In this document: positions 3,787-49,313 of the stretch, piece by piece | Layout: the number at the start of each line of letters is the position of its first letter | Numbering within the stretch: the first letter of the stretch is position 1 | Assembly (NCBI GenBank): GCA_963829055.1 | Contig: CAWHHI010000016.1 | Coordinates: forward strand, 160,001-224,000 | Origin: an uncultured Gemmatimonadaceae bacterium | Lineage (GTDB): Bacteria; Gemmatimonadota; Gemmatimonadetes; Gemmatimonadales; Gemmatimonadaceae | Direction of reading: 5' to 3' | DNA length: 64,000 bases | Position numbers and translations under genes: made by a program | The notes under the pieces: generated by a model | Told to the model about the DNA's origin: nothing | What the model saw: only the letters and a program-made list of their open reading frames with translations | The model's database searches: none

Positions 3787-4143
3787 TCACGCGTTGAACG
3801 AGCTGCCGCACCCGCAGCCGCCCGTGGCGTTCGGATTCTTGAAGGTGAAACCCGAGCCCTGCATCGACGAGACGTAATCGATCGTGACGCCGCTCAGATA
3901 CTGGGCAGAGAACGGATCGACGAACACGCGGAAACCGCTCATGTCGACGACGAAATCATCGTCCGCGGCCTGATCCTCGATCAGCAGGCCGTACTTGAAT
4001 CCGCTACAGCCGCCCGGCTGAACGCTGACGCGCAGGCCGCCCTTCTCGGCAGGCACGCCCTCGGCGTCCATGAACCGCAGGACCTCGGTGGCAGCCACCG
4101 GTGTCACCACGATTGCCAGGGTTGGCTCCTGAATCGTGCTCAT
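3787..4143 (-). CDS. HesB/IscA/ErpA-family iron-sulfur cluster assembly accessory protein
   Basis: GGCSGFKY and NPNATGGCGCGSSF motifs; GGAGG RBS upstream of ATG 4143. Confidence 0.93.
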   Translation of the reverse strand: MSTIQEPTLAIVVTPVAATEVLRFMDAEGVPAEKGGLRVSVQPGGCSGFKYGLLIEDQAADDDFVVDMSGFRVFVDPFSAQYLSGVTIDYVSSMQGSGFTFKNPNATGGCGCGSSFNA

Positions 4144-33257: not shown

Positions 33258-33881
33258 ATGAGCGCGTTCATCCACGAATCCAGCTACGTCGATGATGGTG
33301 CCGTCATTGGTGACGGTACCAAGGTCTGGCACTTCTGTCACGTCATGGGCGGAGCTGTGATCGGCGAGCGCTGCAGTCTCGGCCAGAACGTGGTCGTGAT
33401 GCCCGGCACGCGCATCGGCAACAACGTCAAGATCCAGAACAACGTCTCGATCTACGAAGGCGTGGAACTCGAGGACGACGTGTTCTGCGGTCCGTCGATG
33501 GTGTTCACGAACGTCATCAATCCGCGCAGTCACGTGTCACGAAAACACGAGTACCAGCGCACGCTCGTTCGACGAGGGGCCACGATCGGCGCGAACGCGA
33601 CGATCGTCTGCGGTGCGACGCTCGGCGAGTACGCGTTCGTCGGAGCGGGTGCGGTCGTGACGAAGGACGTGAAATCGTACGCGTTGGTGACCGGAGTGCC
33701 TGCTCGGCAGGTTGGATGGATGTGTCGATGTGGGGAGAAGATTCCGGACTGCGGACAGCGGGAACAGGGCACGGAGCAACGCGGAACCGAGCGCCGCAAC
33801 GCGAATCGTCTGCGGTGCGTGCGGACACCGCCTACACGCTCGATGACGACAACTCGCGGCTCGCCGAAGCACCATGACTGA
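33258..33881 (+). CDS. WbpD/WlbB-like hexapeptide-repeat N-acetyltransferase (C-terminus probably frameshifted)
   Basis: [45 protein letters not shown] and GWMCRCG. Confidence 0.9.
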
Positions 33882-33892
33882 GCATGACTGAG
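33873..33892 (+). repeat. 10-bp tandem duplication CATGACTGAG x2 at the gene junction
   Basis: Read directly; it duplicates the ATG/TGA junction. Confidence 0.9.
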
Positions 33893-34927
33893 ACGCCTCC
33901 CATTCGCATCGCTCTCGCAGGGTGTGGGCGCATCAGCCGCAATCACTTCGATGCCATCGCGAAGATCGATGGCCTCGAGCTCGCGGCTGTCTGCGACATC
34001 ATTCCGGAGCGCGCGCGCGAGGCAGCTGACCGCTATGGCGTGCCATGGTTCGAGTCAGTCGACGAGATGCTCGCCTCGGTTCGATGCGATGCCGTCGCAC
34101 TCTGCACGCCATCCGGGCTGCATCCGAAGAACGGCATCGTTGCGGCGAGGGCCGGGAAGCACGTCATCTGCGAGAAGCCAATGGCGATCTCGCTCGAGGG
34201 TGCGGATGCGCTGGTCCAGGAGTGCGACGCGGCGGGCGTCCAGCTGTTCGTCGTGAAGCAGAATCGATTGAATCCGTCGATTCAGCTGCTCAAGCGCGCG
34301 ATTGATCGCGGTCGATTCGGTCGGATCTATCTGGCCAACACGACCGTCCGGTGGACGCGCCCCCAGGAGTACTACGACCAGGCGCCGTGGCGCGGCACGT
34401 GGGAGTTCGATGGCGGCGCCATCATGAATCAGGCGTCGCACTACGTCGACCTGATTCAGTGGCTCGTTGGACCCGTCGAGAGTGTGACGGCGAAGACTGC
34501 CACGCTCGCGCGTCGGATCGAGGCTGAAGATACGGGCATCGCCGTACTGAAATTTCGGTCGGGCGCCCTCGGCGTCATCGAAGTCACAATGCTCACCTAC
34601 CCGCGAAACCTCGAAGGATCGATCACCATTCTCGGGGAGAAGGGCAGCGTGAAAGTCGGTGGCACTGCCGTGAATCGCGTCGAGCACTGGACGTTCGCGG
34701 ACTACGATGACGACGACAAGCTCGTGGACGCGGCGTCGACCAATCCTCCGACGGTGTACGGCTTCGGCCACGAGGGCTACTACCGGAACGTGCTTGCGGT
34801 GCTGCGCGGTCAGGCCAAGGCGGAAACCGATGGACGCGCGGGGCGCAAATCACTCGAGCTGATTCTCGGGATCTACGAATCCGCGAAGACGGGCCGCGAC
34901 GTTCCCATTCCTCTCGCGCGCCGCTGA
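33884..34927 (+). CDS. WbpB/WlbA-like Gfo/Idh/MocA oxidoreductase (UDP-GlcNAcA 3-dehydrogenase-like)
   Basis: GCGRIS, TPSGLH, CEKPMA, VKQNR and WRGTWEFDGGAIMNQASHYVD. Confidence 0.9.
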   Translation: MTETPPIRIALAGCGRISRNHFDAIAKIDGLELAAVCDIIPERAREAADRYGVPWFESVDEMLASVRCDAVALCTPSGLHPKNGIVAARAGKHVICEKPMAISLEGADALVQECDAAGVQLFVVKQNRLNPSIQLLKRAIDRGRFGRIYLANTTVRWTRPQEYYDQAPWRGTWEFDGGAIMNQASHYVDLIQWLVGPVESVTAKTATLARRIEAEDTGIAVLKFRSGALGVIEVTMLTYPRNLEGSITILGEKGSVKVGGTAVNRVEHWTFADYDDDDKLVDAASTNPPTVYGFGHEGYYRNVLAVLRGQAKAETDGRAGRKSLELILGIYESAKTGRDVPIPLARR

Positions 34928-34983
34928 TCGAGCCGTCAAACAGCGACGCGGCGCGCGCTCATTCTCTCTCGACTCCTCCAGTC

Positions 34984-36096
34984 ATGCCCGTTCCGTTACT
35001 CGATCTTCGTGCGCAGCACGCGACCATCAAGGACGACGTCGTGCGCGCCATGATGCGTGTTGTCGACGACCAGCTCTTCATCCTCGGCGAGCCGGTCGAA
35101 CGGCTCGAGAAAGCAGTCGCCGAGCTGTCGCGGACGAAATACGCGATCGGGTGCGCCAACGGCACTGACGCGATTCTGCTGGCGCTCCGCGCGCTGGATG
35201 TCGGCCGCGGCGACGAGGTCGTAACGACCCCGTTCACGTTCTTCGCGACAGCGGGCACGGTGCATAACGTGGGCGCCACGCCGGTGTTCGTGGACATCGA
35301 ACCGGACACGTTCAACATCTCGGCGGATGCCGTTGGCGCCGCGGTCGGTCCGAAGACGAAAGCGGTCATCCCGGTGGACCTGTTCGGCGCGATGGCGGCA
35401 ATCGAGCGTGTCGAAGCCGCGGCGCCCGGTATTCCGATCATTGAGGATGCCGCACAGTCCATCGGCGCCAAGCGTCGAATCGGCGACAGCTGGGTCATGG
35501 CTGGAGAGCGCGCCACGATCGGCACGCTCAGCTTTTTCCCGTCCAAGAACCTCGGCGCCTATGGCGACGCAGGGATGATGCTCACGCAGGACGAGGGCCT
35601 CGCCACGCGCCTCAAGCGGCTCCGGGTTCACGGCGGGGCGAAGACCTACTACCACGACGAAGTCGGCTACAATAGCCGCCTCGACGCGCTACAGGCCGCT
35701 GTGCTCCACGCGAAGCTGGCTCACCTCGAAGGGTGGAGCGCAAAGCGCCGGGCGAATGCCGCGTACTACGATAGCGCCTTCGCGGACCTGCCCGACGTCA
35801 AAACGCCATACGTCGAGCCCTGCAACGTCTCGATCTTCAACCAGTACACGATTCGCGTTGCGCGCCGAGATGCTCTTCAGTCCTTCCTGAAGGAACGGGG
35901 TATCGGGAACTCGATCTACTACCCCCTCCCGCTCCACCTGCAGCCATGTTTCGCGTACCTGGGCTACAAGGAAGGGAGCTGTCCGGAGTCTGAGCGCGCG
36001 GCGGGAGAGGTACTATCCTTGCCGATCTTCCCAGAGCTCGAACAATCCCAACTCGACGAAGTCATCGCTGCCGTACGCTCCTTCTACGGCCGTTGA
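34984..36096 (+). CDS. WbpE/WlbC-like DegT/DnrJ/EryC1/StrS aminotransferase
   Basis: CANGTDA, IEDAAQSIG, SFFPSKNLG, GYNSRLDALQA and LSLPIFPEL. Confidence 0.92.
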   Translation: MPVPLLDLRAQHATIKDDVVRAMMRVVDDQLFILGEPVERLEKAVAELSRTKYAIGCANGTDAILLALRALDVGRGDEVVTTPFTFFATAGTVHNVGATPVFVDIEPDTFNISADAVGAAVGPKTKAVIPVDLFGAMAAIERVEAAAPGIPIIEDAAQSIGAKRRIGDSWVMAGERATIGTLSFFPSKNLGAYGDAGMMLTQDEGLATRLKRLRVHGGAKTYYHDEVGYNSRLDALQAAVLHAKLAHLEGWSAKRRANAAYYDSAFADLPDVKTPYVEPCNVSIFNQYTIRVARRDALQSFLKERGIGNSIYYPLPLHLQPCFAYLGYKEGSCPESERAAGEVLSLPIFPELEQSQLDEVIAAVRSFYGR

Positions 36097-36133
36097 CGCG
36101 TCGCGTCATCCGATCGTTCAATTATTGACTGTG

Positions 36134-37532
36134 ATGAAAGCAGAACTCCTTTCCCGAATTCAGGACCGCAGCGCCACCGTCGGCGTCGTGGGGCTCGGCT
36201 ACGTCGGCTTGCCGCTCGCAATGGAATTCGCGAAGGCGGGTTTCCACGTCATCGGCTACGACGTCAGCGACCGTGTGTGCAAGCTGCTCATGAGTGGCCA
36301 GTCGCACATCCAGGACGTTCCCGCGGCCGAAGTCGCCTCAATGCTCAAGAACGGGCTCTTCGAGGCGACGACCGACGAAAGCGCGCTAGGCCGTTGCGAC
36401 GCGATCTCGATTGCGGTCCCGACGCCGCTCAGCAAGACGCGCGACCCGGACATGAAGTACGTTCAGGCCGCTACCGAGGCGATCGCTCGCAATGCGCACC
36501 CTGGGATGCTCGCCGTGCTCGAGAGCACGACGTACCCCGGTACGACGCGCGAAGTCATGCAGCCCAAGCTCGAAGAGCGCGGGCTCACGGTGGGGAAGGA
36601 CGTCTTCCTCGCGTTCAGCCCCGAGCGCGTCGATCCGGGCAATCCGAAGTACCACACGAAGAACACGCCCAAGGTCGTCGGCGGCATCACGGCCGCGTGC
36701 ACTGAGGTGGCGGTGGCGCTCTACTCGTCGTGCATCGACACGGTGGTGCCAGTGTCGACGACCGAGGCGGCGGAGCTCGTGAAGCTGCTCGAGAACACGT
36801 TCCGGTCGGTGAACATCGGCCTCGTGAACGAGATGGCGATCATCTGCGAGAAGCTGCACGTCAACGTCTGGGAAGTCATCGAGGCGGCCGCGACGAAGCC
36901 ATTCGGCTTCATGAAGTTCACGCCGGGCCCCGGCATCGGCGGCCACTGCATTCCGCTCGATCCGCACTACCTCGCGTGGAAGATGCGCACCCTGAACTAC
37001 AAGACGCGCTTCATCGACCTGGCGAGCGAGATCAACAGCGAGATGCCGGCGCTCGTCGTCGACAAGGTCTCGGTTGCGCTCAACGATGACAGAAAGGCGG
37101 TCAACGGCAGCCGCATCATCGTCGTCGGCGTCGCGTACAAAAAGGACATCGACGACATCCGCGAGAGCCCTGCGCTCGACGTGATCCGCCTGCTCGAGGA
37201 GCGCGGTGCTGAAGTCGTCCATCACGACCCGTTCATCCCGCGGTTTCGTGACGGAGGTCACGATGGTGGAGGGGAGCACAAAGAGCGCATCGGCGTGCGA
37301 TCTGAGCGCCGCGGAGTTAGGCAGGGCGGACGCGGTCGTTATCGTCACGGACCACTCGCAGATCGACTACCAGCAGATCGTCGATGACGCGAACCTCGTG
37401 ATCGATACGCGCAACGCGACTGCGCACGCGAGTCGCGGGCGGGCGCGAGTCGTTTCGCTCGCCGCTGACCCCAAGCCCGCGGCGACGGCGTCGCTCGGCA
37501 CGCAGTCTCGGAAGAAGACCGCGATGACCTGA
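36134..37532 (+). CDS. WbpA-like UDP-GlcNAc 6-dehydrogenase (frameshift near 37250)
   Basis: GLGYVGLPLA, ESTTYPGTT, SPERVDPGN and PGPGIGGHCIPLDP. The C-terminus ADAVVIVTDH..VIDTRN lies in ORF 37206-37532. Confidence 0.88.
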
Positions 37533-37741: not shown

Positions 37742-39517
37742 ATGGTGCGCGCCACCTCTCACCGTGCGCCTTCCCTGCGAACACGTCCGATTCAGATCCT
37801 TCGTTCCGCGGCGACCAGCTGTGCGTTCCCGCTCGCCTGCTGGCAGACGATTGAGCGCCTTGCGATCGCGTTCATAGCGACGCTCTTATCGTTGGCGGCG
37901 GGCGGCAACGCCGCTGCGCAGGGGCAGCCGCACTCGCTGACGACGCTGCCGATCGGCGACGCCGCGTACGCGCAGTTGGCCGCGCTCGAACGCAGCGGGT
38001 GCAGGCCGGCACGCGTCTCGCCGCATCGCCCGTTCATGGTCCGCGACGTCCAGCGAGCGGTCGCGCGGTTTGCGTCCAACCCGCAATGCGGTGGTCCGGT
38101 CGCGGTGTCACTCGCGACTCGGTTTCTGGCGGCACGCAAGCCGACGCCGCCAGGCGAGGTCGCTTCGGATCTGGCGGCGGCCGTCCGCGAATCGGAGCCC
38201 GACTCGTTGGACACGTTTCGCTTCGGCGGGCGAGCGACGATTCGTGGCACGGCGCTCGCCCGCGGCGAGTTCGAGCCGCTGTGGGCCGGCGTTAGGCCGA
38301 GCGACGAGGGGACACCGCCGGTAGTCGCTGAGGGCCGCGCGCGACTTGGCTGGTCGTCGTCGCCGCACCTCGTTGTCGTCGGTGAGTTGTATGGGCAGAC
38401 CTCGCGCCGGAATGATCCCACCGTTCGACAGCGTGCGTTCCGCAACACGTCGGGCGTCGTCGATTTCGGCGAGACCTACGCGAACGCGTCGTTAGGCAGG
38501 CTGGACGTCTCGTTCGGCCGGAGCTGGGCGTCGTGGATGGGCGAGGACACCGAGTCGATCGCGCTGTCGGCGAATGGTCCGCTCGTGGACCGGCTCGAGC
38601 TCGGCCTTCGATGGCGCGTCGCTGAAGTGCGGGCGATTGTCGCGTCAGTCAACGACGTGACAATGACGCCGGAGCTCGACAGCCTTGCCGCGGACACGCC
38701 CGAGACCCGTTTTCATCGCTGGCTCTACGGCCACGTCCTCACCATCAAACCGAACGATCGTCTTGAGTTCACGATCGGCGAAACGATATTGTCGTCACGT
38801 ACGACGGGCGGGCTCGACCTCGCGTACGCGAATCCCGTCATGGCGTATGTCATCACCCAGAACGACACAGGCCGCGTCGGTTCCGATACACGCGACAACC
38901 TCGTCGTCTTCGGCGGCGCTCGCGTTGCGCTCGGCCGCGGTCACATCGGCGCCGAGCTGACGGTGGATGACATCCAGATCGATGCCGAGGACCGGGAGAC
39001 TACAGCGGATCAGCTCGCATGGCGAGTCTATGGCGCCCTGCCGATCCCTGTTGGTACGAACTCGGGTGCGAAGGTCGAATACCGCCGCGTCGACAGCTAC
39101 GCTTACCTTCGGGACTTCTACACCGACGTGTACCAGCAGTACGATAAACCGCTGGGCTCAGTGCTCGGTCCTGGCGCGGACCTCATCCGCGCCGTGGGTG
39201 AGACGTGGATCGGTGGCGATGTGCGAGTCGCTGCCGGCATTGGGCACTGGCGTCAGGGAGGACTGCGGATCGACCAACGGCCAGCCCAAGGACCGAATGG
39301 CAACGCAAACAAGCCTTTCCCGGCCGTCACGAGCACCCGTCCAGAAGTTCAGTCCGCTCTCCTGGCGGACCTGCAAGCGCAACGGCTCAATCTTCGCGTC
39401 CCGATCTCAGTGCAACTCCAGCTCGCGCGCATCGAGAACGCGGCGAACGTGTCTGCCGCCGCGGCCCTATATGTGCGAGCAGTCATCAGCGGTTCCTATG
39501 CGTTCCGATATCCCTGA
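37742..39517 (+). CDS. Capsule assembly Wzi-family outer-membrane beta-barrel protein
   Basis: SFGRSWASW..ESIALS, HRWLYGH..LEFTIGETI, YANP, DNL..ELTVDD and PLGSVLGPGAD; terminal YAFRYP; lies upstream of wza-wzc. Start uncertain. Confidence 0.7.
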   Translation: MVRATSHRAPSLRTRPIQILRSAATSCAFPLACWQTIERLAIAFIATLLSLAAGGNAAAQGQPHSLTTLPIGDAAYAQLAALERSGCRPARVSPHRPFMVRDVQRAVARFASNPQCGGPVAVSLATRFLAARKPTPPGEVASDLAAAVRESEPDSLDTFRFGGRATIRGTALARGEFEPLWAGVRPSDEGTPPVVAEGRARLGWSSSPHLVVVGELYGQTSRRNDPTVRQRAFRNTSGVVDFGETYANASLGRLDVSFGRSWASWMGEDTESIALSANGPLVDRLELGLRWRVAEVRAIVASVNDVTMTPELDSLAADTPETRFHRWLYGHVLTIKPNDRLEFTIGETILSSRTTGGLDLAYANPVMAYVITQNDTGRVGSDTRDNLVVFGGARVALGRGHIGAELTVDDIQIDAEDRETTADQLAWRVYGALPIPVGTNSGAKVEYRRVDSYAYLRDFYTDVYQQYDKPLGSVLGPGADLIRAVGETWIGGDVRVAAGIGHWRQGGLRIDQRPAQGPNGNANKPFPAVTSTRPEVQSALLADLQAQRLNLRVPISVQLQLARIENAANVSAAAALYVRAVISGSYAFRYP

Positions 39518-40252
39518 CGCTTCGCGTGGTCGGCCACACACGTACGCCCGAGGGCGTGCTCGCCAATCGAGAGCACGCATCGCGTGCATCACGTCGTGTG
39601 TCTTCGCGGTACTGGCGATGGCGGCGGCGCCGACACGCGCGCAGACGGTCCTGCCGCTGCCGGCCCCGCAGGACACAGGGACGGCTCCCCGAAACGTGGG
39701 TGCGCTCCGTCCCGGTGACGTCCTCAAGATCGCGGTCTTCCGCGACAAGGAGCTCACGGGCGATTATCCGATCGATGCGCGCGGCTATGTGCAGATTCCG
39801 GGACTCGGCGTGATCAAGGCGGCGGGTCTCGATCCGACCGAAGTCACCGATCGATTGCGGCTCGCGCTCATCGAGCGCGGATTCGCTCGCCCGGAGATCT
39901 CGGTGCAGCCGCTGATCCGCGTCTCGGTGTTAGGCGAGGTGCGTTCGCCGAACGTCTACCCGGTCGATCCGGGAACCAGCCTGCTGCAACTCCTCACCGT
40001 GGCAGGCGGACCCACGGACCGCGCGAAGCTCCAGGACACGCGCGTCATTCGCGACGGTCGCGCATTCAAGATCGACATGGACGGCGGTCTTCACGGGAGT
40101 CCCGCCGGGCGCGTGGTGCTCTATTCCAACGACGTTGTCGTCGTCGGGCGAAAGAGAGGGTTGACGAGCGAGAACCTCGGGCTTAGCGCTGACGGGTGCA
40201 TCCTTCATTCTCGTCGTGCTCAACATTGGCTTTCCTGGTGCGTCACAATTGA
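39498..40252 (+). CDS. wza: Polysaccharide export protein (Wza/SLBB family); C-terminus probably disrupted by indels
   Basis: LRPGDVLKIAVFRDKELTGDYPIDARGYVQIPGLG and VSVLGEVRSPNVY..LLTVAGG. The hydrophobic tail LALTGASFILVVLNIG is in a shifted frame. Confidence 0.8.
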
Positions 40253-42681
40253 GAGCTCCCTATCTTGCCCCGGTCGCGAACGGTGACGATGCGCCGGTGG
40301 GCGGCGATGCCTTCTCGGTGCGCGACGTGCTGCTCGCCGTGCGCCGTCGCTGGTGGGCGGTCCCCATCGTGTTCGTGCTGTTCGTGTCGTTCGGTATCTG
40401 GCGAACGATGCGCGAACCGCACATTTACCGCGCGGCGACTACCGTCCGCATCGAGAACGCGACGTCGCCTATTGCGGGCGTACAGACGAGCGCGCCGACC
40501 TACGACTATCGGATCGATCCGATGGTGTCGGAGCAACAGGTCATCAAGAGCCGGATGGTTGCCGAGCGTGTCGTCAACGCGCTCGGCCTGCGTCTCCGCG
40601 TGGTCGAACCGTCGGGCCTCGAGCGCGCCGATCTGTTCGGTGGGGTGCCGCCACTCGTGGATTCCACCGCACCTCCGGGCGACCTCAGGCTCACGTTAGG
40701 CGCGACGACGTACTCGCTGAGCACCGGCGGCATCAAGTACGCCACCGCGACGTACGGTCGAGCGGTCGCCGGCGGCGGCGTGAGATTCGTCGTGCCGGAG
40801 CGGCCGCCGGTCCGCGAGCAGAGCGTCCTGCTCGAGATACTTCCGCTCGCGGCGGCCGCGGCCGAGCTGCGCGGTTCGATCGCGACGAAGGTCCTGCCGC
40901 AGACGAACATCGTCGAGATCTCGTATGTCGGCACCGAGCCCGCACTCGTCCGCGACGTGACGAACGCCGTCGCCCGCGAGTATGCCGCCGTTTCCAGCGA
41001 AATGCAGCGCGCGAATGCGCGTGCAAGGAGTCAGTTCATCGCGTCGTCGCTGCGTGATCAACGTCTGCGGCTGGACTCGGCCCAGGACGCACTCAAGAAC
41101 TTCAAGGAGCGCGAGCAGATCGGCGATGTGAACTCCGAGCAGGCGGCGCTCGCCCAAAGCATCCATCGGATGGAAGAGGCGAAGCAGTCGGGCCTCGTCG
41201 AGCAGCAGATCTATTACACGCTCGTGGGCAAGCTCACGGCGGCGGACACGGCTGACGAAGAGCTTCGCCGTCTCGTGGGCACCGAGGCCGTCGAGAAGAA
41301 TCGCTACATCGCGAACCTTTACGACCGCTGGTTCAGCCTCGTGAAGGAGCGCGAAACGCTCTATGCGCGCGGTCGGACGGAGAAGAACGAGGACGTGAAG
41401 GCAGTGCAGCGTTTGATCAGCCGGACGAAGGAAGACGTCCAGAGCGCGAGCCAACTCTATCTGCTGGCGCTGCAGTCGCGCCTCGGCTCGCTCGACAAGT
41501 CGATCGCGAACCTTCGCGTGCAGACGGAGAAATATCCGAAGCTCGAAGCCGAGCAGACGCGGCTCTCGGCGACGATGGGGACGATGCAGCGAACGTTCGA
41601 CAACCTCCAGTCCGAGTTCCAGCTCGCGCGGATCTCCGAGTCGGTGGACGCCGGTCGCGTGCAGTCCATCGACGAAGCCACGCTCCCCACGTTTGCCGTC
41701 TCGCCCAACCGTAAGCGCGCGATCACGTACTCCGCGCTCGTGGGCCTGCTTCTCGGGTTCGCGCTGGCGTTCGCGCTCGACCGGCTCGACGACTCCGTCA
41801 AATCGCCGGACGAGTTGCGAGAGCAGATGGATCTTCCGATGCTCGGCTTGATTCCGGCGATCCGTGCGGAGCGAGGCAGTCGCCGGACGGCCGACTCGAC
41901 GGCCGGCCGACTGATCACACATGCCGACCCGCGATCGCCGGTAGCCGAGGCGTACCGTTCCATGCGAACGAACCTGGCGTTCGCGCGCGCGCAGCAGTCG
42001 CCGCAGGCAATCGTGGTGGCGAGTCCTGGACCGTCCGATGGCAAGTCGACCACCGTCGCAAACCTCGCCATCACGTTCGCTCAGCAGGGCCAGCGTACGC
42101 TGTTGATCGACGCGGACCTGAGGCGCGCGGTGCTCGACAAGGCGTTCTCGATTCCGCGTTCGCCGGGGCTCACCGAAGTCATCATCGGGGAAGCGTCGCT
42201 CGAGGACGCGGTGCACGAGACGGCGGTGCCGAACCTGTCGCTCGTTGCCAGCGGTCGTTTCCCGCCGAACCCGGCCGAGCTGCTCGGCTCGGTGCGCATG
42301 CAGGAAATACTGCACGAAGCCAAAGCACAGTTTGACGTCGTGCTGCTGGACTCGCCGCCGCTCCTGGCGGTGACCGATGCCGCGGTGCTCGCTACGATGG
42401 TCGATGGCGTCGTGCTCGTAGTTCGCACGGAGCGTACGAAGCGTGATGCGGTGCGGCGGGCGCTCGGACACATCCACTCGGTCCGCGGGCGCTTGTTAGG
42501 CGCCGTGCTGAACGACGTGGATCTTCGAAGCGGCGCGTACTATGGCAGCTATGGGCACTACTATTACTCGTATTACGGTACCGATCGCCGTGCCAGCAAC
42601 GGAGGTGGTGCGGTGCGGCGACTGCGCCAGCTCGTCGGGCGCGGCGCGTCCAACAACGGCGAGAGCGACGAAGGCGCGTGA
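40249..42681 (+). CDS. wzc: Polysaccharide co-polymerase / BY-kinase
   Basis: Two TM segments with a coiled-coil periplasmic domain; EAYRSMRTNL, Walker A SPGPSDGKST, LLIDADLRR, DSPP and Tyr cluster YYGSYGHYYYSYY. Start uncertain. Confidence 0.92.
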   Translation: MRAPYLAPVANGDDAPVGGDAFSVRDVLLAVRRRWWAVPIVFVLFVSFGIWRTMREPHIYRAATTVRIENATSPIAGVQTSAPTYDYRIDPMVSEQQVIKSRMVAERVVNALGLRLRVVEPSGLERADLFGGVPPLVDSTAPPGDLRLTLGATTYSLSTGGIKYATATYGRAVAGGGVRFVVPERPPVREQSVLLEILPLAAAAAELRGSIATKVLPQTNIVEISYVGTEPALVRDVTNAVAREYAAVSSEMQRANARARSQFIASSLRDQRLRLDSAQDALKNFKEREQIGDVNSEQAALAQSIHRMEEAKQSGLVEQQIYYTLVGKLTAADTADEELRRLVGTEAVEKNRYIANLYDRWFSLVKERETLYARGRTEKNEDVKAVQRLISRTKEDVQSASQLYLLALQSRLGSLDKSIANLRVQTEKYPKLEAEQTRLSATMGTMQRTFDNLQSEFQLARISESVDAGRVQSIDEATLPTFAVSPNRKRAITYSALVGLLLGFALAFALDRLDDSVKSPDELREQMDLPMLGLIPAIRAERGSRRTADSTAGRLITHADPRSPVAEAYRSMRTNLAFARAQQSPQAIVVASPGPSDGKSTTVANLAITFAQQGQRTLLIDADLRRAVLDKAFSIPRSPGLTEVIIGEASLEDAVHETAVPNLSLVASGRFPPNPAELLGSVRMQEILHEAKAQFDVVLLDSPPLLAVTDAAVLATMVDGVVLVVRTERTKRDAVRRALGHIHSVRGRLLGAVLNDVDLRSGAYYGSYGHYYYSYYGTDRRASNGGGAVRRLRQLVGRGASNNGESDEGA

Positions 42682-44249
42682 GCAGCGCTGTGGAGGACGG
42701 ACACGTGGCGGCGATCTCGTTCGACGTGCGCGATGCGGTTTCGCTCGCGATCAGGCTCGCGCTTGGGAAGCCTCGGCTCGAGGACTGCTACGCCAACTGG
42801 GCCCTGGTGTTCGACGCGGCGTCGCGCGAGTTGCTCGCGCCGCTCGCGTGGATTCGGTCGGGTCAGTTCATTCGTCGGTTCGCCGGTCCGGTTGTGACGG
42901 ATCGGTGGCGTCGTGCGGCGGTGGCGACGCACGTCCGGGGACAGCAGCAGCTCGACCTGCTACGGGTTGCCATGGATGCGCTCAGAGCCGCGGGGGTCGA
43001 AGGCATCGCGCTCAAGGGGTTACCGTTAGGCCAACGGCTCTACGGTGATCCGTTCGTCCGCTGCTCGGCGGACATCGACCTGTATGTCCCCGCGGTACAG
43101 CGGGCACGCGCGAGCGCTGCGCTCGAGTCCATCGGCTGGCGGAGCGACGACGGGCAGGCGCCCTGGCACGAGGCGTGGTCGATCTGGCGCGCGGACGTCG
43201 CGTATCATCTCGAGCTGCACTCGTCGCTCGTATCCGATCATCTGTTCCACTTGGAGCCGCCGGCGCCGGGGTCCACCACCGTGTATGTCGCCGGTGTGCC
43301 GGTGCGCGCGCACGCCGGTGATTTTGTTGCGCCGTACCTGGCGGTCCATCTCGCGACGCACCAGATGCCTCCACTGCTGTGGTTCGTGGATTTCGCGAGC
43401 CTCTGGAGCTCGCTCTCCGCGGTGGAGCGCGTTCGCGCCGAAGGCGCTGCGCTCGAGGCGGGCGTGTCTCGCTACCTCGCCTGGGCCCGCGACCGAGCGG
43501 TCCTGGTCGACCGTCTCGCCGCTGGCGACCGGGAGACGTTAGGCGCGCTCGGCGTCACGAGCGACCGGCGCCGCGACATCCACTCCATCTGGCGGCACCT
43601 CGCGCTCGCGGCTACCGTGGCCGACCGCGTTCACGTGATGGCCGCGTTTCTGATTCCTCGTCGTGTTCGCGGCGATATCGGAGCGTTTGCGCGATACACG
43701 CTGGCGCGACTTCGCACTCGACTTCGGTCGCTCGCCGGAATGTCTCGCGACTACGCGTCGTCGGACGACAGCGCCCAGCCCGTCGAGTCGCAACTGGAGG
43801 TTTCACCAGGGTCCGCGCGCGCACTTCGGATGGAGCGGAGCGACATGGTGGCGCTCGCGACCGACGTTACGCGCGCGGGTGGCGCGCTGCGAGTTCGCGC
43901 GCGGGGCGGAAGTATGCTGCCGACGATTCCGCGAGGGGCGCTCGTCCGGATCGGCGGCGTACCGCCCGCCGGGGTGCTGCGTGGCGATGTGGTGTTGGCC
44001 CTGACGACCGACGGTGAGCCGGTTCTCCATCGCGCCGTGGAGGTTCGGCCCGACGCGATCGTGACCCGCGGTGACGCGGCCATCTACGTCGACGCCGCCA
44101 TTCCGCTCACGCGAGTAATCGGGGTGGCCACGCATGTCACTGAGGCCGGCGTCGAGCGCCAGCTGGGCCGTCGACCGCAGCGGTCGCTTGCGGTTTCCGC
44201 GCTCAAGCTTCGCCGGCGCCTTGCACGGGTGGTGCGTCGTGATCGCTGA
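42678..44249 (+). CDS. Nucleotidyltransferase (NTP_transf_5-like) fused to a C-terminal S24/S26-family peptidase
   Basis: N-domain LKGLPLGQRLYGDPFVRCSADIDLYV...LELH; C-domain RARGGSMLPTI...GDVVL...VLHRAV...TRGDA. Confidence 0.8.
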   Translation: MSSAVEDGHVAAISFDVRDAVSLAIRLALGKPRLEDCYANWALVFDAASRELLAPLAWIRSGQFIRRFAGPVVTDRWRRAAVATHVRGQQQLDLLRVAMDALRAAGVEGIALKGLPLGQRLYGDPFVRCSADIDLYVPAVQRARASAALESIGWRSDDGQAPWHEAWSIWRADVAYHLELHSSLVSDHLFHLEPPAPGSTTVYVAGVPVRAHAGDFVAPYLAVHLATHQMPPLLWFVDFASLWSSLSAVERVRAEGAALEAGVSRYLAWARDRAVLVDRLAAGDRETLGALGVTSDRRRDIHSIWRHLALAATVADRVHVMAAFLIPRRVRGDIGAFARYTLARLRTRLRSLAGMSRDYASSDDSAQPVESQLEVSPGSARALRMERSDMVALATDVTRAGGALRVRARGGSMLPTIPRGALVRIGGVPPAGVLRGDVVLALTTDGEPVLHRAVEVRPDAIVTRGDAAIYVDAAIPLTRVIGVATHVTEAGVERQLGRRPQRSLAVSALKLRRRLARVVRRDR

Positions 44250-45135
44250 ATCCCGCATGGTCGCCGTGGCGCCGGTGGCAGGCATTCCGATCGTCCACGA
44301 GTTGATGGACGGGATCGAGATCGAACATCGCGATGCCGTTCTGTGGGCAGGAACCGCGTCGACATGCGCCCCGATCGTCATTCGGCATGAGCTTGGCGAT
44401 GCGTCTCCGCGCGCGATGCGCGCGGTGCTCGACGTGCCGCCGTGGTGCACGTTCCACCTCGATGCACGCGGAGAACCAGCGTCGCACTTTCACGCGGTCT
44501 TCGGTGAAGTGGATCGCCTGCTGACGTGTGAGGAGCCGGGCGCGACCTACGTCGTCAAGTATGGCGCCACTCCCCGCGAGCCTGTCGTCGCCTTGCAGTC
44601 GGAGCTCGCGACCTACTCGTTCGCGCTGTCGGCGCGCGAAGTCGGGCTGATCGCGCATTCGTGCGCGTTCGTCACGCCGGATGGGGCAGGGGTGCTGTGC
44701 CCGGGCGTGTCCGGCACTGGCAAGACGACGCTCGCGCGTCTGCTGCACGCGAACGTGCCCGAGGTGGAGTTGCTCACCGACGATCGCGCGATCGTTAGGC
44801 TCGACGCCGATGCGCTCAGCGTGTGGGGCTCGCCGTGGCCTGGCGCCGCGGGCATCGCCGGACCCGGTGTGGCATCGCTCGATGCGGTCGTTTTCATTCG
44901 CCATGGCACTACGATGACGATGCGTCGCGTGGCGCCGAGCGATGCGTTCCGCCGGATCCTGAACACGCTGTCGATGCCGCTCTGGGAGCCGGCTCGATGT
45001 GGCCGTGCACTGGAGATCGTCGACGCCATCGTGTCCCGCGCGACGCTTGTGGAAGCGTCGTATCCGCCCACAGGCCGCGCCGCTCGCTGGCTCGTGGACG
45101 AGCTCCGTGGACTCGAATCGTTAGGCGCGCGATGA
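44239..45135 (+). CDS. HPr kinase-related P-loop kinase
   Basis: AHSCAF..GVLCPGVSGTGKTTLARL...LLTDDRAIV...WGSPW, matching the H, Walker A and DD signature of HprK-like proteins. Confidence 0.8.
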   Translation: MIAESRMVAVAPVAGIPIVHELMDGIEIEHRDAVLWAGTASTCAPIVIRHELGDASPRAMRAVLDVPPWCTFHLDARGEPASHFHAVFGEVDRLLTCEEPGATYVVKYGATPREPVVALQSELATYSFALSAREVGLIAHSCAFVTPDGAGVLCPGVSGTGKTTLARLLHANVPEVELLTDDRAIVRLDADALSVWGSPWPGAAGIAGPGVASLDAVVFIRHGTTMTMRRVAPSDAFRRILNTLSMPLWEPARCGRALEIVDAIVSRATLVEASYPPTGRAARWLVDELRGLESLGAR

Positions 45136-45464
45136 CGCAGGCCAACGATGCATCCACCGCGCGGTGGCAGCGCGCCGGCGGCGTCATCGCGCGACGGGTG
45201 GCGGGCGAGACGGTGCTCGTACCGCTCACCGCACGTGCGTCCGATCCCGAGTTCAAGAGCGCTCGCCTGTACGTCTTGAACGAGACAGGCGAGTTCCTCT
45301 GGTCGTTGCTCGATTCCCCTCGGTCCAGTGTCGAGCTGGCTCGGAACTTGACTCAAGAGTTCGTGACCGCGGCCGGACGTGCGCATTCGGATGTGGAAGT
45401 GTTCCTCGCCGCGCTGCGCGACATTGGTGCCATCCGCGAGCTGCCCGACGACGGAGCCGAATGA
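45132..45464 (+). CDS. PqqD-family peptide-binding protein (stand-alone RRE)
   Basis: VIARRVAGETVLVP...LYVLNETGEFLWSLLD...LTQEF...DVEVFLAALRDIGAI. Confidence 0.9.
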   Translation: MTQANDASTARWQRAGGVIARRVAGETVLVPLTARASDPEFKSARLYVLNETGEFLWSLLDSPRSSVELARNLTQEFVTAAGRAHSDVEVFLAALRDIGAIRELPDDGAE

Positions 45465-46576
45465 GCGCAATGCAGATGTCGATGGGCCGCTTCGAGGAGC
45501 GACTGGGCGCGCGAGCACGGCGCGAGCGCCAGCCGCTGTCGTGCCTATTCGAGATCACGCCTCGGTGTAACCTCCGCTGCAAGTTCTGCTACGTCGCCCT
45601 CGATCCATATCAGGGCCCGTACCTCGGCACCGACCAGGCGTGTCGTGTGCTCGACGTCATCGAGCAGGCGGGGGTGCTGTGGCTGACGCTGACGGGTGGG
45701 GAGGTGTTCTCACGACGCGACTTCCCGACCATCTACGAATACGCGCTGACCAAGGGGCTCCTCGTCACGATCTATACGAACGCGACGATGGTCACCGAGT
45801 CCGTGGCGCAGCTCCTCACCGACCGGCCGCCGTTCTCGGTGGAGGTCAGCATCTACGGGGCGGACGCCGAGCACTACGAGGCGACGACGCAGATTCCCGG
45901 CTCATTCGCGCGGTTCGAGCGCGGGATCGCGCGACTGCAGGCCGCGGGCGTGCCCCTGCTGATGAAATGCCCGATCAGCACATTGACCGCGGATCACGTC
46001 GCGGCGCTCGTGCAATGGTGTACCGACCGCGCTTTACCATTCAAGGCGGACCCGGTTATCGACGCGCGCCACGATGGCGGGCAGCAGCCGACTCTCTACC
46101 GCATCGCGCCTCGCGGCGTCGTCGAGCTTCGCGATGAGCTGTACGCGTTGAGTCACGGCGCGCCGCGGCCTGCTGGACCGCTTCCCGAATGTTCAGTCCG
46201 CGGCGACGCGGATGGCCCTGAAGAGCTGTACACCTGCGGTGCCGGGCGTATAGCGTTCTTTGTCGACGCACTCGGAAACGCCAGCCATTGCGTGATCGAT
46301 CGCGAGCCGTCATTTCCGATTCTCGAAACGCCGTGGAACGAGCTCTGGACGCGCATGGGAGCGTGGGTTACGCAGCCGTTGCCGACCGACGCGTCGTGCA
46401 GCGGATGCTCGCTGCGCGGCGGGTGCAGCAACTGCCCGGCGCGATCGAGGCTCGCGACCGGAAGTCCGTTCCTGAAGGATGAATACCAGTGTGACATCAC
46501 ACACGCCATTCATGGGCTTCCGCCGGCGCGCCACGAGCATCGCGCGCCTCGCCCACTCGCAGCGTGTACCGCCTAA
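45461..46576 (+). CDS. Radical SAM/SPASM peptide maturase
   Basis: EITPRCNLRCKFCY (CxxxCxxC), LTGGE and YTNA; SPASM motifs CGAG...HC and CSGCSLRGGCSNCPA...C. Confidence 0.92.
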   Translation: MSAMQMSMGRFEERLGARARRERQPLSCLFEITPRCNLRCKFCYVALDPYQGPYLGTDQACRVLDVIEQAGVLWLTLTGGEVFSRRDFPTIYEYALTKGLLVTIYTNATMVTESVAQLLTDRPPFSVEVSIYGADAEHYEATTQIPGSFARFERGIARLQAAGVPLLMKCPISTLTADHVAALVQWCTDRALPFKADPVIDARHDGGQQPTLYRIAPRGVVELRDELYALSHGAPRPAGPLPECSVRGDADGPEELYTCGAGRIAFFVDALGNASHCVIDREPSFPILETPWNELWTRMGAWVTQPLPTDASCSGCSLRGGCSNCPARSRLATGSPFLKDEYQCDITHAIHGLPPARHEHRAPRPLAACTA

Positions 46577-46599
46577 CGTGACGTGCCGAGGCTAGCACC

Positions 46600-46776
46600 A
46601 TGACTGAACAGAACCCCTTGTCCGACGTCGAACATTCCGACGCACGGCGCCCGTATGAGCCGCCGGCGGTGATCGAGGTGTTCGTCGACCCGGCGAAGGA
46701 CATGCTCGTTGCCTGCGCCCCCGGTAAGTTGCCCAGCTCGGGCGGACGGGCCTGTAACGCCGTGCAGTTTACCTGA
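46600..46776 (+). CDS. Putative RiPP precursor peptide (58 aa); missing from the ORF track
   Basis: MTEQNPLSDVEHSDARRPYEPPAVIEVFVDPAKDMLVACAPGKLPSSGGRACNAVQFT*. GAGG lies upstream and the ATG is 23 nt after the rSAM stop. It has a YxxP leader motif and a two-Cys core. Confidence 0.78.
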   Translation: MTEQNPLSDVEHSDARRPYEPPAVIEVFVDPAKDMLVACAPGKLPSSGGRACNAVQFT

Positions 46777-46800: not shown

Positions 46801-46831
46801 GAACTGGCGACTGAAGCGCTCGCGCCAGTTC
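46801..46831 (+). promoter_or_regulatory. Stem-loop just downstream of the precursor ORF
   Basis: GAACTGGCG ... CGCCAGTTC 9-bp inverted repeat; no long U-tract. Confidence 0.45.
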
Positions 46832-47046
46832 ACATCGCCGGTCCGGGGCGGGACCGTCTGACGGCTCGATCGTCATCCACGACGCCCTCGGCCATCACGT
46901 TTCCCCGCGACACCACCACGAGATCGTTGCCCGATCGATCCAGAACGTCCGTCGATGAACACATCGACGGTCGCGCGACGGTTGCGGCTGCACACTGGCC
47001 TAGGTAAGCTATTGCGGCCACTCAACTTCAACGAACTGGAGCACGC

Positions 47047-48360
47047 GTGAAGATCGCTGTCATCGGGTCCGGCTACGTCGGCCTGGTCGTAGGCGCCTGC
47101 CTGGCGGAAACCGGAAATGACGTGACGTGCGCAGACGTCGATCAGAACAAGATCGATGGGCTGAAGCAGAACGTCTTGCCAATTTACGAGCCGGGCCTGG
47201 ACGGGCTCGTCGAACGGAACCAGCAGCAAGGCAGGCTTCACTTCACCACCGACGTGGGCAACGCGGTCGCGAAAGCGGAAGTCGTGTTCATCGCCGTGGG
47301 CACGCCACCGGACGAAGACGGCTCCGCGGACCTCCGCCACGTGCTCAGCGTGGCTGACATGATCGGCGAGCACATGACGCGCGAGCTCGTCGTCGTCACC
47401 AAATCGACTGTACCAGTCGGGACAGCGGCGAAGGTCGCGAGCGCCGTCGGCAAAAAGGCGCGGCACCCATTCCACATGTGCAGCAACCCCGAGTTCCTGA
47501 AAGAAGGTGCGGCGCTCGACGATTTCATGAAGCCCGACCGTGTCGTGCTCGGCGTCGACAGCGATCACGCGCGCAGCGTCATGGCGGAGCTGTACGCGCC
47601 GTTCGTCCGAACCGGCAAGCCGATCATCTTCATGGACATTCCTTCGGCGGAGATGACGAAGTACGCCGCCAATGCGATGCTGGCGACGCGCATCTCGTTC
47701 ATGAACGAGATCGCGAACCTGTGCGAGAAGGTCGGCGCGAATGTCGATCTCGTTCGAAAGGGCATTGGCAGCGACGCGCGCATTGGCCCGTCGTTTCTGT
47801 TCCCAGGACCCGGCTACGGAGGCTCCTGCTTTCCGAAGGACGTGAAGGCGCTCGTGCGCACTGCTGGAGAAGCAGGATCACCACTCAACGTTCTCCAGGC
47901 AGTGGAAGATGCCAACGATCGTCAGAAGCATCGCCTGTTCGAGAAGCTGCACTGCGCGCTTGGCGACGCGATCAAGGGCGCGCACATCGCGGTGTGGGGG
48001 CTCGCGTTCAAACCGCAGACCGACGACATGCGCGAGGCGCCGGCGCTCACATTGATCGACGACGTCATCGCCGCTGGCGCGACGATCACGGCGCATGATC
48101 CGGCGGCGATGCACGAGGCGAAACGCCGCGTCGGCGCCCGCATCAACTACGCGGCGTCGAACTATGAAGCGCTCGATGGCGCAGACGCGCTGGTCGTGGT
48201 GACCGACTGGAACGAGTACCGGCACCCCGATTTCTCACGCATGAAATCACTGCTTCGACGGCCCGTCGTCATCGATGGCCGCAATCTGTACGATCCCGCG
48301 AAGATGCAGACGCTCGGCTTCGACTACTTCTCGTTCGGACGCGGGAGAGAACGCGCATGA
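47047..48360 (+). CDS. ugd: UDP-glucose 6-dehydrogenase
   Basis: [31 protein letters not shown] and [10 protein letters not shown]. Confidence 0.95.
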
Positions 48361-49313
48361 GAGTGCTCATCACCGGCGCCGCCGGCTTTCTCGGGTCGCA
48401 CCTCTGCGACCGGTTCCTTGCCGATGGGCATTCGGTGGTGGGACTCGACAACTTTCTCACCGGGAACCCGGCGAACATCGCCCACCTCATGGGCGACACG
48501 CGGTTCGAGTTCGTCGAGCACAACATCTCGACGTACACGTACGTCGCGGGCCAACTGGATGGCGTGCTGCACTTCGCCTCGCCCGCCAGTCCGGTCGACT
48601 ACCTCGAGTTTCCGATCGCGACGCTCAAGGTCGGCGCACTCGGTACGCACAACGCGCTGGGCCTCGCGAAGGCGAAAGGGGCGAGATTCTTCATCGCGTC
48701 GACGTCCGAGGTTTATGGCGACCCGCTCGAGCATCCGCAGACGGAGAAATACTGGGGGAATGTGAACCCCATTGGTCCGCGCGGCGTCTACGACGAAGCG
48801 AAACGCTTCGCGGAAGCGATGACGATGGCATACCATCGCTTCCACGGGATGGACACGCGGATCGTGCGGATCTTCAACACGTACGGGCCGCGCATGCGTC
48901 CCAACGACGGCCGTGTCGTATCGAATTTCATCGTTCAGGCTCTCAGCAACGAGCCGCTCACGATTTACGGCGACGGTTCACAGACGCGGAGCTTCTGCTA
49001 CGTCTCGGACGAGGTCGAGGGTATCTACCGGCTGTTCATGCGGGGGGACAGCAACCCCACGAACATCGGTAACCCGAATGAGTTCACGGTGCGCCAACTG
49101 GCCGAGCTCGTGATCGAGTTGACGGGGACCAAAGCCACGATCGTCCAGCGCGAGCTTCCCGTAGATGATCCGAAAGTGCGACGTCCCGATATCACCCGGG
49201 CCCGCGAGATGCTGGGATGGGAGCCCACCGTCGCGCTTCGCGAGGGCGTGGGGCGCACCATCGAATACTTTCGGTCAGTTCTGACGAAGGAAGCGGTCTC
49301 GGCCCGCGCGTAG
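48357..49313 (+). CDS. UDP-glucuronate decarboxylase (UDP-xylose synthase) family SDR
   Basis: [41 protein letters not shown] and [10 protein letters not shown]. Confidence 0.92.

Follow-up and report, generated by a model that had tools for sequence, protein, structure and literature searches.

A 58-residue YxxP-leader precursor and its probable radical SAM, kinase and signal peptidase cassette in an uncultured Gemmatimonadaceae bacterium

The locus described here raises the question of whether a 58-codon open reading frame, at positions 46600..46776 on the forward strand of the 64,000-nucleotide stretch of Gemmatimonadaceae DNA that we analysed (the window), is a real gene and, if so, what the enzymes encoded directly before it make of its product. 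Our data show that the reading frame is a real gene under selection, and its peptide is almost certainly the substrate of a cassette that encodes an RRE, a radical SAM enzyme, a kinase, a peptidase and a nucleotidyltransferase. The best explanation overall, to which we give a little better than even credence, is that this cassette turns the precursor into a crosslinked phosphoglycopeptide of 20 residues that probably acts at the cell surface.

The translation agrees exactly with that of the preliminary description of this DNA, with Cys39, Cys52, the pair Ser46-Ser47 and Thr58 in place and no Asp or Glu after Ala38. The start codon lies 23 nt behind the stop of the radical SAM gene, and the GAGG ribosome-binding site seen earlier is present on the same strand at 46588..46591, 8 nt before the ATG; GAGG- or GGAG-like motifs precede the precursor in many homologues, a general impression rather than a count. 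GC3 is 0.81 in the precursor, 0.80 in the radical SAM gene and 0.81 in ugd. Purifying selection was seen when 30 non-identical close-clade DNA sequences were compared over the last 43 codons: pN/pS in the precursor frame is 0.13, variable columns are distributed over the codon positions as 16/13/41 of 43 codons, and there are zero stops. The remaining five frames give ratios of 0.27-3.8 and contain stops. Tyr19, Pro22, Cys39, Cys52 and Thr58 are each retained in 30/30 of these sequences and residues 1-15 are free to vary; because the clade was chosen by the last seven residues, conservation is inflated at those residues only. The YxxP motif and the two Cys, on which the preliminary description staked its claim, are thus all conserved in the close clade.

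The gene also has syntenic homologues. Small reading frames carrying the motif [KR]x(1-2)[YW]xxPx[VLI] make up 45 of the 23,492 Met-started frames of 35-90 aa in the genome from which the window comes. An automatic filter found one directly 3' of the radical SAM gene in 62/65 loci with a homologue of that enzyme (our own locus counted), the 65 being those from related genomes and metagenomes with at least 260 nt downstream of the gene. The three loci missed by the filter (L071, L072 and L079) also show a YxxP peptide, and the search for short frames beside homologous radical SAM genes that had been proposed for this peptide therefore returned one in 65/65 testable loci. Elsewhere in the same genome we found no paralogue of the peptide or of the cassette, and the radical SAM gene and the cassette are single-copy. 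The peptide family has no name in the resources searched: the nearest ESM Atlas clusters are unnamed (scores 0.90-0.91) and assign no family, and 0/26 and 0/42 precursors exceeded any NCBIfam cut-off. Small shares of the region occur in 16 soil RNA runs, and in four soil RNA runs low-depth contigs are dispersed over the operon, one of them spanning 46592-46724 with 2 differences; since such contigs do not tell transcript from DNA, we excluded them from the evidence of expression.

Two non-coding elements follow the gene. The hairpin noted earlier (46801..46831, forward strand) does have a perfect 9-bp stem, 46801-46809 with 46823-46831, but it is not conserved, being already broken in a locus whose radical SAM enzyme is 99% identical (L017), and a U-tract is absent. 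With a folding z of -1.6 and no call by terminator prediction as well, a terminator is ruled out, and the hairpin probably lies outside the system. A separate motif with the core GATCGTCCT, often followed by CAGTC, occupies 46866-46877 in the window and follows the peptide stop by 3-105 nt in 32/42 close-clade loci, the remaining spacer to ugd being variable; it is possibly a regulatory site or the remnant of a lost gene block.

The cassette that ends with the precursor is translationally coupled: its enzyme genes overlap, and it runs on the forward strand in the order nucleotidyltransferase-S26 peptidase fusion, HprK-like kinase, RRE, radical SAM/SPASM enzyme and precursor. The fusion gene (42678..44249) overlaps wzc as GTGA and encodes an NTP_transf_5 domain (PF14907 over cut-off, DxD intact) joined to an S24/S26 peptidase domain that PF00717 and TIGR02228 (E 3.6e-7, below cut-off) match weakly. 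Profile comparison places the S26 domain nearest SEC11; it has Ser412, His451 and Asp466/Asp472, its Ser-His spacing of 39 equals that of LppS from the linear polyphosphorylated peptide (LPP) clusters of Bacillota (LppA/K/B/S/D/N; accessible part of Popov et al. 2026, PMC13381572), and GxSM, HR and GD are retained in 47, 48 and 50 of 53 sequences. Judged by these motifs it is an ER/archaeal-type signal peptidase. The P-loop kinase (44239..45135, starting at GTG 44239 or at ATG 44257) matches HprK_rel_A/B and ScmC weakly, below cut-off, and has the His-Lys-Asp-Asp set (HKDD), as do 46/61 homologues. The stand-alone PqqD/RRE gene (45132..45464; PF05402 over cut-off) is followed, through an ATGA overlap of stop and start, by the radical SAM/SPASM gene (45461..46576; PF04055), whose product has CxxxCxxC, no fused RRE and seven SPASM Cys retained in 100-102 of 102 homologues. 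From sequence, all catalytic motifs of the cassette look intact. Versions of the cassette with two or three radical SAM genes occur at L113, L127, L141, L143, L144, L151 and L159; several of these, in which the leader is of WxxP type and the Cys number four to five, match group 6 of Precord et al. (accessible part of PMC10288494).

For the pattern of the precursor family, a leader-only HMM was run on 173 loci (own-genome and duplicate loci excluded) in order to avoid circularity. It returned 109 rows scoring 10 bits or more, covering 37/79 genome-collection loci, of which 87 are distinct and 42 remain at <50% identity, and eight rows of 6-10 bits were dropped; the 42 representatives are kin, so counts among them overstate independence. 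The leader M1-A38 (46600-46713) contains the RRE-recognition motif Y19-x-x-P22-x-V24 (46654..46671), of which Tyr19 and Pro22 are invariant in 26/26 and 40/40 aligned precursors and Y+5 is V, L or I in 41/42. The first Cys falls at Y+20 in 26/42 representatives and between Y+17 and Y+23 in 41/42. Three Cys are present in 29, two in 9, more in 3 and one in 1, with a first Cys-Cys spacing of mostly 10-17 that is nowhere fixed. The peptide ends in Ser (30) or Thr (7) in 37/42; for comparison, Ser/Thr make up 19% of the other core residues, and 14/151 enzyme reading frames of the same loci end in one of the two. Apart from Cys and this terminal residue, no core position is conserved across the family. 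At L153 (Omnitrophota) there are two short precursors, 2635-2739 and 3874-3996, with near-identical leaders and differing cores.

The first step of maturation would be the grip of the RRE on the leader at Tyr19-x-x-Pro22, and judging from the protein sequences we consider this binding very probable. The RRE is closest to TbiB1, PbaB1 and LppB, with the LppB structure 9x8z matched at E 3e-9. In LppB, Asp70 and Phe74 bind the leader Tyr and Pro, Asp70 by a hydrogen bond to Tyr (accessible part of PMC13381572); Asp87 and Phe91 of our RRE align with these two residues, and Asp87 is invariant in 40/40. It is this closeness, together with the alignment of Asp87 and Asp70, that leads us to predict leader binding, and the earlier assignment of an RRE-type YxxP leader is borne out by the invariant Tyr19 and Pro22 and by the adjacent RRE of lasso/LPP type.

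The radical SAM enzyme would then link Cys39 and Cys52 as thioethers, a reading that we favour with moderate confidence. It rests on the observation that, the terminal Ser/Thr aside, only Cys is conserved in the core, on Cys counts that are odd in most of the family, which argues against disulfides alone, on SkfB as the best PDB sequence match of the enzyme (E 6e-28, leading by ten orders of magnitude), and on the catalytic-site residues. These are Y/T/Y/S/V/I, against Y/T/I/S/K/L in StsB, Y/T/F/S/Q/L in SkfB (as read from the alignment) and F/F/T/S/H/Q in CteB; they thus agree with StsB at 3/6 and with CteB at 1/6, and lean to StsB and SkfB over CteB, although the Val at position 5 differs from both StsB and SkfB. 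In a competing explanation, which is unlikely yet has to be weighed, the precursor and cassette are the same, Cys serve as disulfide or metal ligands, and the enzyme makes a C-C crosslink, an epimerisation or an MftC-like C-terminal oxidative decarboxylation. Scores of decarboxylases and C-C bond formers are indeed comparable: the enzyme is under every listed NCBIfam cut-off, its top scores there being the decarboxylases AhbD and MftC and then StsB, all far below, and Foldseek with an AlphaFold2 model (pLDDT 73) puts PqqE and SuiB level with SkfB at 15-23% identity, so that the model supports a SPASM-type fold but does not discriminate the chemistry. The window's lineage moreover has two variably spaced Cys and no visible conserved acceptor residue, the 42 representatives show neither a conserved acceptor nor a fixed Cys spacing, and the last Cys stands 5-6 residues from the C-terminus in 24/42. 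Against this explanation stand the three Cys of the 29/42, the catalytic-site and SkfB matches, the conservation of Cys family-wide and the scoring of kindred precursors as sactipeptide/ranthipeptide candidates in the accessible part of Precord et al. 2023.

In the reading with thioethers, the kinase would phosphorylate the C-terminal Thr58, and we hold this site to be rather more probable than any other. The conservation of the terminal Ser/Thr suggests it, as does the precedent of PadeK-type kinases, which modify a C-terminal Ser by means of His-Lys-Asp-Asp and whose characterised C-terminal sites are all Ser (accessible parts of PMC6993621 and PMC9266682). The preliminary description had taken Ser/Thr of the core as kinase targets, which remains probable for Thr58 but not for the Ser-Ser pair: Ser46 is retained in 25/30 and Ser47 in 12/30 of the close clade, and the pair is ruled out as a conserved kinase site. 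A further difficulty for Thr58 is that the characterised LPP kinase LppK left an S3T variant unphosphorylated (PMC13381572, accessible part). We regard it as rather improbable that the kinase acts in the manner of LppK on an internal loop Ser (Ser46 or Ser47), Thr58 being conserved for another reason. LppK does modify an internal Ser and reject Thr, Ser46 is present in most of the close clade (25/30), a Ser/Thr stands two residues past the first Cys in 20/42, and two loci not ending in Ser/Thr, L063 (Ala) and L093 (Val), retain an intact HKDD kinase, which also counts against Thr58, as does the total of 5/42 with such ends. However, Ser46 is replaced by Asp in 4/30, Ser47 survives in only 12/30, core position 3 is Pro41, and Ser/Thr occurs at positions -2 to -4 in 4-7/42 compared with 37/42 at the end. 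The other three exceptions do have an altered kinase; these Anaerolineaceae peptides (L098, L107 and L110), which end in Pro or Tyr and are adjoined by C25 peptidase genes, go with HKED and form one clade, and so count as one event.

Release of the core would follow from a cut by the S26 domain after Ala38, giving C39-T58 (46714..46773). Cleavage at A38|C39 is likely by analogy with LppS, an archaeal-type signal peptidase that cuts the leader only with the RRE and needs a hydrophobic residue at -3 and Thr at -1 (accessible part of PMC13381572). We place the cut by the LPP Fx[T/A] rule and from the fixed Tyr-Cys distance, the residues before the site (hydrophobic at -3, small at -1; Leu at Y+17 in 24/42), the SEC11-like peptidase and the match to LppS. 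The preliminary description had likened LVA|C to a signal-peptidase site, and the proposal has gained from the discovery of an ER/archaeal-type signal peptidase in the cassette and of a first Cys at a fixed distance from Tyr. The L-x-[AGS]-C-type pattern resembles the lipobox consensus as well, with Leu at -3 of the first Cys in 21/42 and mostly small residues at -2 and -1, but a small lipoprotein processed by Lgt/Lsp instead of the S26 domain is very unlikely: the leader has an RRE motif and no hydrophobic h-region, E26, D30, K33 and D34 precede the site, the pattern equally fits the -3/-1 rule of LppS, and the Cys lies away from Y+20 in 16/42.

Least credible is a lasso precursor processed in trans, for although the YxxPxV leader and the RRE are of lasso type and a B2-like gene and asparagine-synthetase-family genes occur elsewhere in the genome, the core lacks Asp and Glu (as had been pointed out before) and has no Thr at -2, Asp/Glu occupies core positions 7-9 in only 9/42 relatives, the cassette is without B2 or cyclase, and the B2-like gene has an RRE to itself and sits on a different contig; the core sequence excludes a lasso for any cut other than one upstream of Asp30/Asp34. 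PF13471 is found on contig C19 only, and the nearest strong PF00733 matches stand on C16 at distances of about 57 and 89 kb. The C19 locus (L181, G000:C19:37927-41127) consists of a second stand-alone RRE, a lasso B2-like transglutaminase gene and an ABC ATPase directly 3' of rpsL-rpsG, with no obvious precursor seen.

Returning to the crosslinked phosphopeptide, the nucleotidyltransferase domain might cap its phosphate with a sugar or a nucleotide in the manner of PsmN, which is required for the hexose on the phospho-Ser of pseudomycoidin (PMC6993621, PMC9266682; accessible parts). We advance such a cap tentatively, by analogy, and with somewhat less than even confidence; LppN was inactive in a heterologous test (PMC13381572, accessible part).

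A cell-surface role for the product is similarly a tentative proposal that falls short of even. Wzi-like, Wza-like and Wzc-like polysaccharide export genes, recognised by profile matches, lie directly upstream of the cassette (37742..42681), preceded by wbpD/B/E/A-like sugar-nucleotide genes (33261..37387) that encode an acetyltransferase, a Gfo/Idh/MocA oxidoreductase, a DegT aminotransferase and a nucleotide-sugar dehydrogenase and owe their Wbp names to gene order and families; a UDP-glucose dehydrogenase and an NAD-dependent epimerase/dehydratase follow (47047..49313), all on the forward strand. The WbpA-like dehydrogenase (36125-37532) looks frameshifted near its end, where the Pfam C-terminal domain stops at 44 of 103 and a different frame, that of ORF 37206-37532, offers a plausible C-terminal continuation, by assembly error or a real break. 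In four cassette-free relatives the wbpA-like gene or degT runs straight into ugd, with no Wzi/Wza/Wzc at the site, G023 has Wzi/Wza/Wzc before ugd and no cassette, and G010 has the cassette and no Wzi/Wza/Wzc. These genomes indicate that the cassette is an optional block at the sugar locus, untied to capsule export. The idea that it is dedicated to capsule export is weakened by G010 and G023, and most loci of other phyla lack sugar genes by the window's queries.

At other loci (L063:3540-7855, L071, L057, L101, L103, L109, L146 and L193-L195) a downstream trio, the closest companion of the cassette within the family, encodes a lipoprotein with BNR/Ycf48-like repeats, an Ig-rich protein and a PorV-family/OmpA fusion. 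The PorV-family model is over cut-off in 2/3 tested fusions, and the nearest Atlas clusters of the Ig-rich middle protein, Por_Secre_tail/FlgD at a score of 0.89, are a lead only. Among 30 genomes of the same family outside the genus, the radical SAM gene and this middle gene, which resembles cargo of type IX secretion (T9SS), coincide in 8/8 versus 0/22; the two are physically linked, which speaks for one mobile block and not for independent co-evolution. Of the eight genomes, G013 is unpublished; the count rests partly on it, as do loci L011 and L194 together with their rows in our alignments A1 and A2. Neither gene was found in 24 genomes of two other families, and in the window's own genus the radical SAM gene is present in 7/7 and the middle gene in 0/7. 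A C25 peptidase occurs in 10/79 genome-collection loci, three of which were tested and gave PorU-model matches below cut-off; none was found in the window's own genome (86% complete). Three genomes of the genus have clusters of three to four weak C25 matches off the cassette contig (G001:C206, G002:C403 and G006:C229). The own genome holds SprA-like fragments that miss the cut-off, together with two PorV-family genes (G000:C12:501376-504846; C16:604415-605254; C11:644044-644865), and its content suggests a type IX-like secretion apparatus.

In Porphyromonas, T9SS cargo is amide-linked to a seryl sugar of the Wbp pathway (accessible part of PMC7468200), and this linkage prompts a further hypothesis, that the product serves as a structural linker at the surface and not as an antibiotic: the peptide would be braced by thioethers, its C-terminal phospho-Ser/Thr joined by the nucleotidyltransferase to a cell-surface glycan, and its freed N-terminal Cys able to accept or bind secreted proteins. 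The siting at a Wbp-like locus in Gemmatimonadaceae, the 8/8 versus 0/22 of the cargo-like gene and the C25 genes at 10/79 loci speak for it, and the loss of the trio block from the window's genus (0/7), the C25-free own genome and the near-universal presence of the Wbp-like genes in the order (56/61) speak against it. We consider it improbable; if true, the peptide would be the ribosomal equivalent of the aminoacyl linking sugar by which type IX cargo is anchored.

The radical SAM enzyme is present in 15/61 related genomes, including 7/7 of the window's genus, in 76 metagenome loci and in 79 loci kept out of at least 448 from a genome collection that spans Gemmatimonadota, Myxococcota, Acidobacteriota, Chloroflexota, Verrucomicrobiota, Omnitrophota and others. 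At E 1e-80 it was found in at least 5/401 phylum-wide genomes, a sample that differs from the 61-genome set and in which the best five candidates per genome were considered. On a tree the window belongs to a fully supported clade of 24 rows on a long branch, whose precursors mostly carry two Cys and have relaxed ends; its sister is a Gemmatimonadota clade of 9 rows in which the precursors have at least three Cys and end in Ser. As a quick version with 64 rows, midpoint root and 31 near-identical close-clade rows omitted, the tree serves for grouping and not for the order of events. New here is a lineage with two Cys and a terminal Thr, which probably belongs to Gemmatimonadaceae, judging by the named neighbours on the radical SAM tree.

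In the literature that we searched, with subscription papers outside coverage, we found no paper that characterises the combined radical SAM/HprK/S26 cassette or its product, and the accessible parts of PMC13692751 (on CrpC) and PMC12710340 do not treat this cassette. The work pins a substrate, a leader motif and the likely cut and modification sites for a RiPP class of many phyla that has no characterised product in that literature and that combines the logic of LPP (an RRE-dependent signal peptidase, a kinase and an NTP transferase) with radical SAM chemistry. The function of NTP_transf_5 enzymes and the reason why phosphopeptide clusters sit in cell-surface loci become testable, and the window's cassette is compact enough, at four genes plus a 58-aa peptide with two enzymes fused, to suit plain co-expression. 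For C39-T58 the calculated monoisotopic masses are 1962.94 without modification, 1958.91 if it carried two thioethers, 2038.88 with a phosphate added and 2200.93 with a hexose as well. A Thr-accepting peptide kinase, if true, would be new relative to LppK. Already known are a studied analogue for each enzyme type and, from the accessible part of the 2023 catalogue, distant precursors listed as uncharacterised sactipeptide candidates.

How the cassette relates to known systems differs with the part considered. SynChlorMet (TIGR04248-04251) and HprK_rel_A/B likewise bring together PqqD-like, HprK-like and radical SAM/SPASM genes, but that cassette is known from model names alone, our literature search having found no paper that uses the term; it has a pair of radical SAM enzymes in place of one, and the scores against cut-offs for ScmC, ScmD, ScmE and ScmF (17.6/125, 23.6/100, 64/400 and 47.9/400) are all far below. 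With the phospho-lasso systems, paeninodin (PadeK/ThcoK) and pseudomycoidin (PsmK/PsmN), as far as their accessible descriptions go, the window shares an HKDD kinase, an NTP_transf-type enzyme, a lasso-type RRE and leader and a C-terminal hydroxyl that is strongly conserved. Unlike them it has a radical SAM enzyme and an S26 peptidase and lacks the B2 protease, the macrolactam cyclase and the ring Asp/Glu, and its lineage ends in Thr.

Sactipeptide systems (StsA/B/C, with a stand-alone RRE) and SkfB, again from the accessible descriptions, have in common with the window a radical SAM/SPASM enzyme, a Cys-bearing precursor and a YxxP or WxxP leader. Our locus has the intact SAM motif, the SPASM Cys, the RRE and conserved core Cys (at least two in 41/42) found in sactipeptides and ranthipeptides, but its precursor has no short-spaced Cys cluster like that of StsA, and no named maturase or precursor model of NCBIfam reached its cut-off. 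Distant relatives are contained in the 'Other Uncharacterized' group 6 and among the singletons of Precord et al. 2023, none of them characterised in the accessible part of that paper, and we infer that group 6 is one of its six predicted sactisynthase groups. Group 6 precursors share the layout of a leader followed by C...C...C...Ser, and one entry is identical to the L159 peptide. The accessible precursor list does not contain the window motif DMLVAC, and 'kinase' and 'peptidase' occur 0 times in the accessible main text.

The closest comparison is with LPP clusters. Both have a stand-alone RRE (here with equivalents of Asp70 and Phe74), an archaeal/ER-type signal peptidase (SEC11-like, Ser-His-Asp), an HprK-like kinase (HKDD), an NTP transferase (PF14907), a YxxP leader, no lasso cyclase and polysaccharide-gene surroundings. 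In the accessible text of PMC13381572 we counted 0 occurrences each of 'radical', 'rSAM', 'SPASM' and 'thioether', and Radical_SAM is one column head of 834 in a domain matrix, whereas a radical SAM/SPASM gene belongs to the window's cassette. An MsbA-like ABC exporter was not found by profile search among 38 window proteins and 8 cassette and flank proteins; the gene caller skipped some window genes, and the cassette itself is gap-free between wzc and ugd. From the LPP leader consensus YxxPxVLxHQxIxFETxxS only YxxPxV matches, the window leader being four residues longer and without HQ/FET. The window core has Cys, its conserved hydroxyl is C-terminal where that of LPP is at core Ser3, the nucleotidyltransferase is fused to the peptidase, and the host is not one of the Bacillota. 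By its sequence, then, the cassette is the LPP machinery minus the LPP transporter and core Ser3, plus a radical SAM enzyme.
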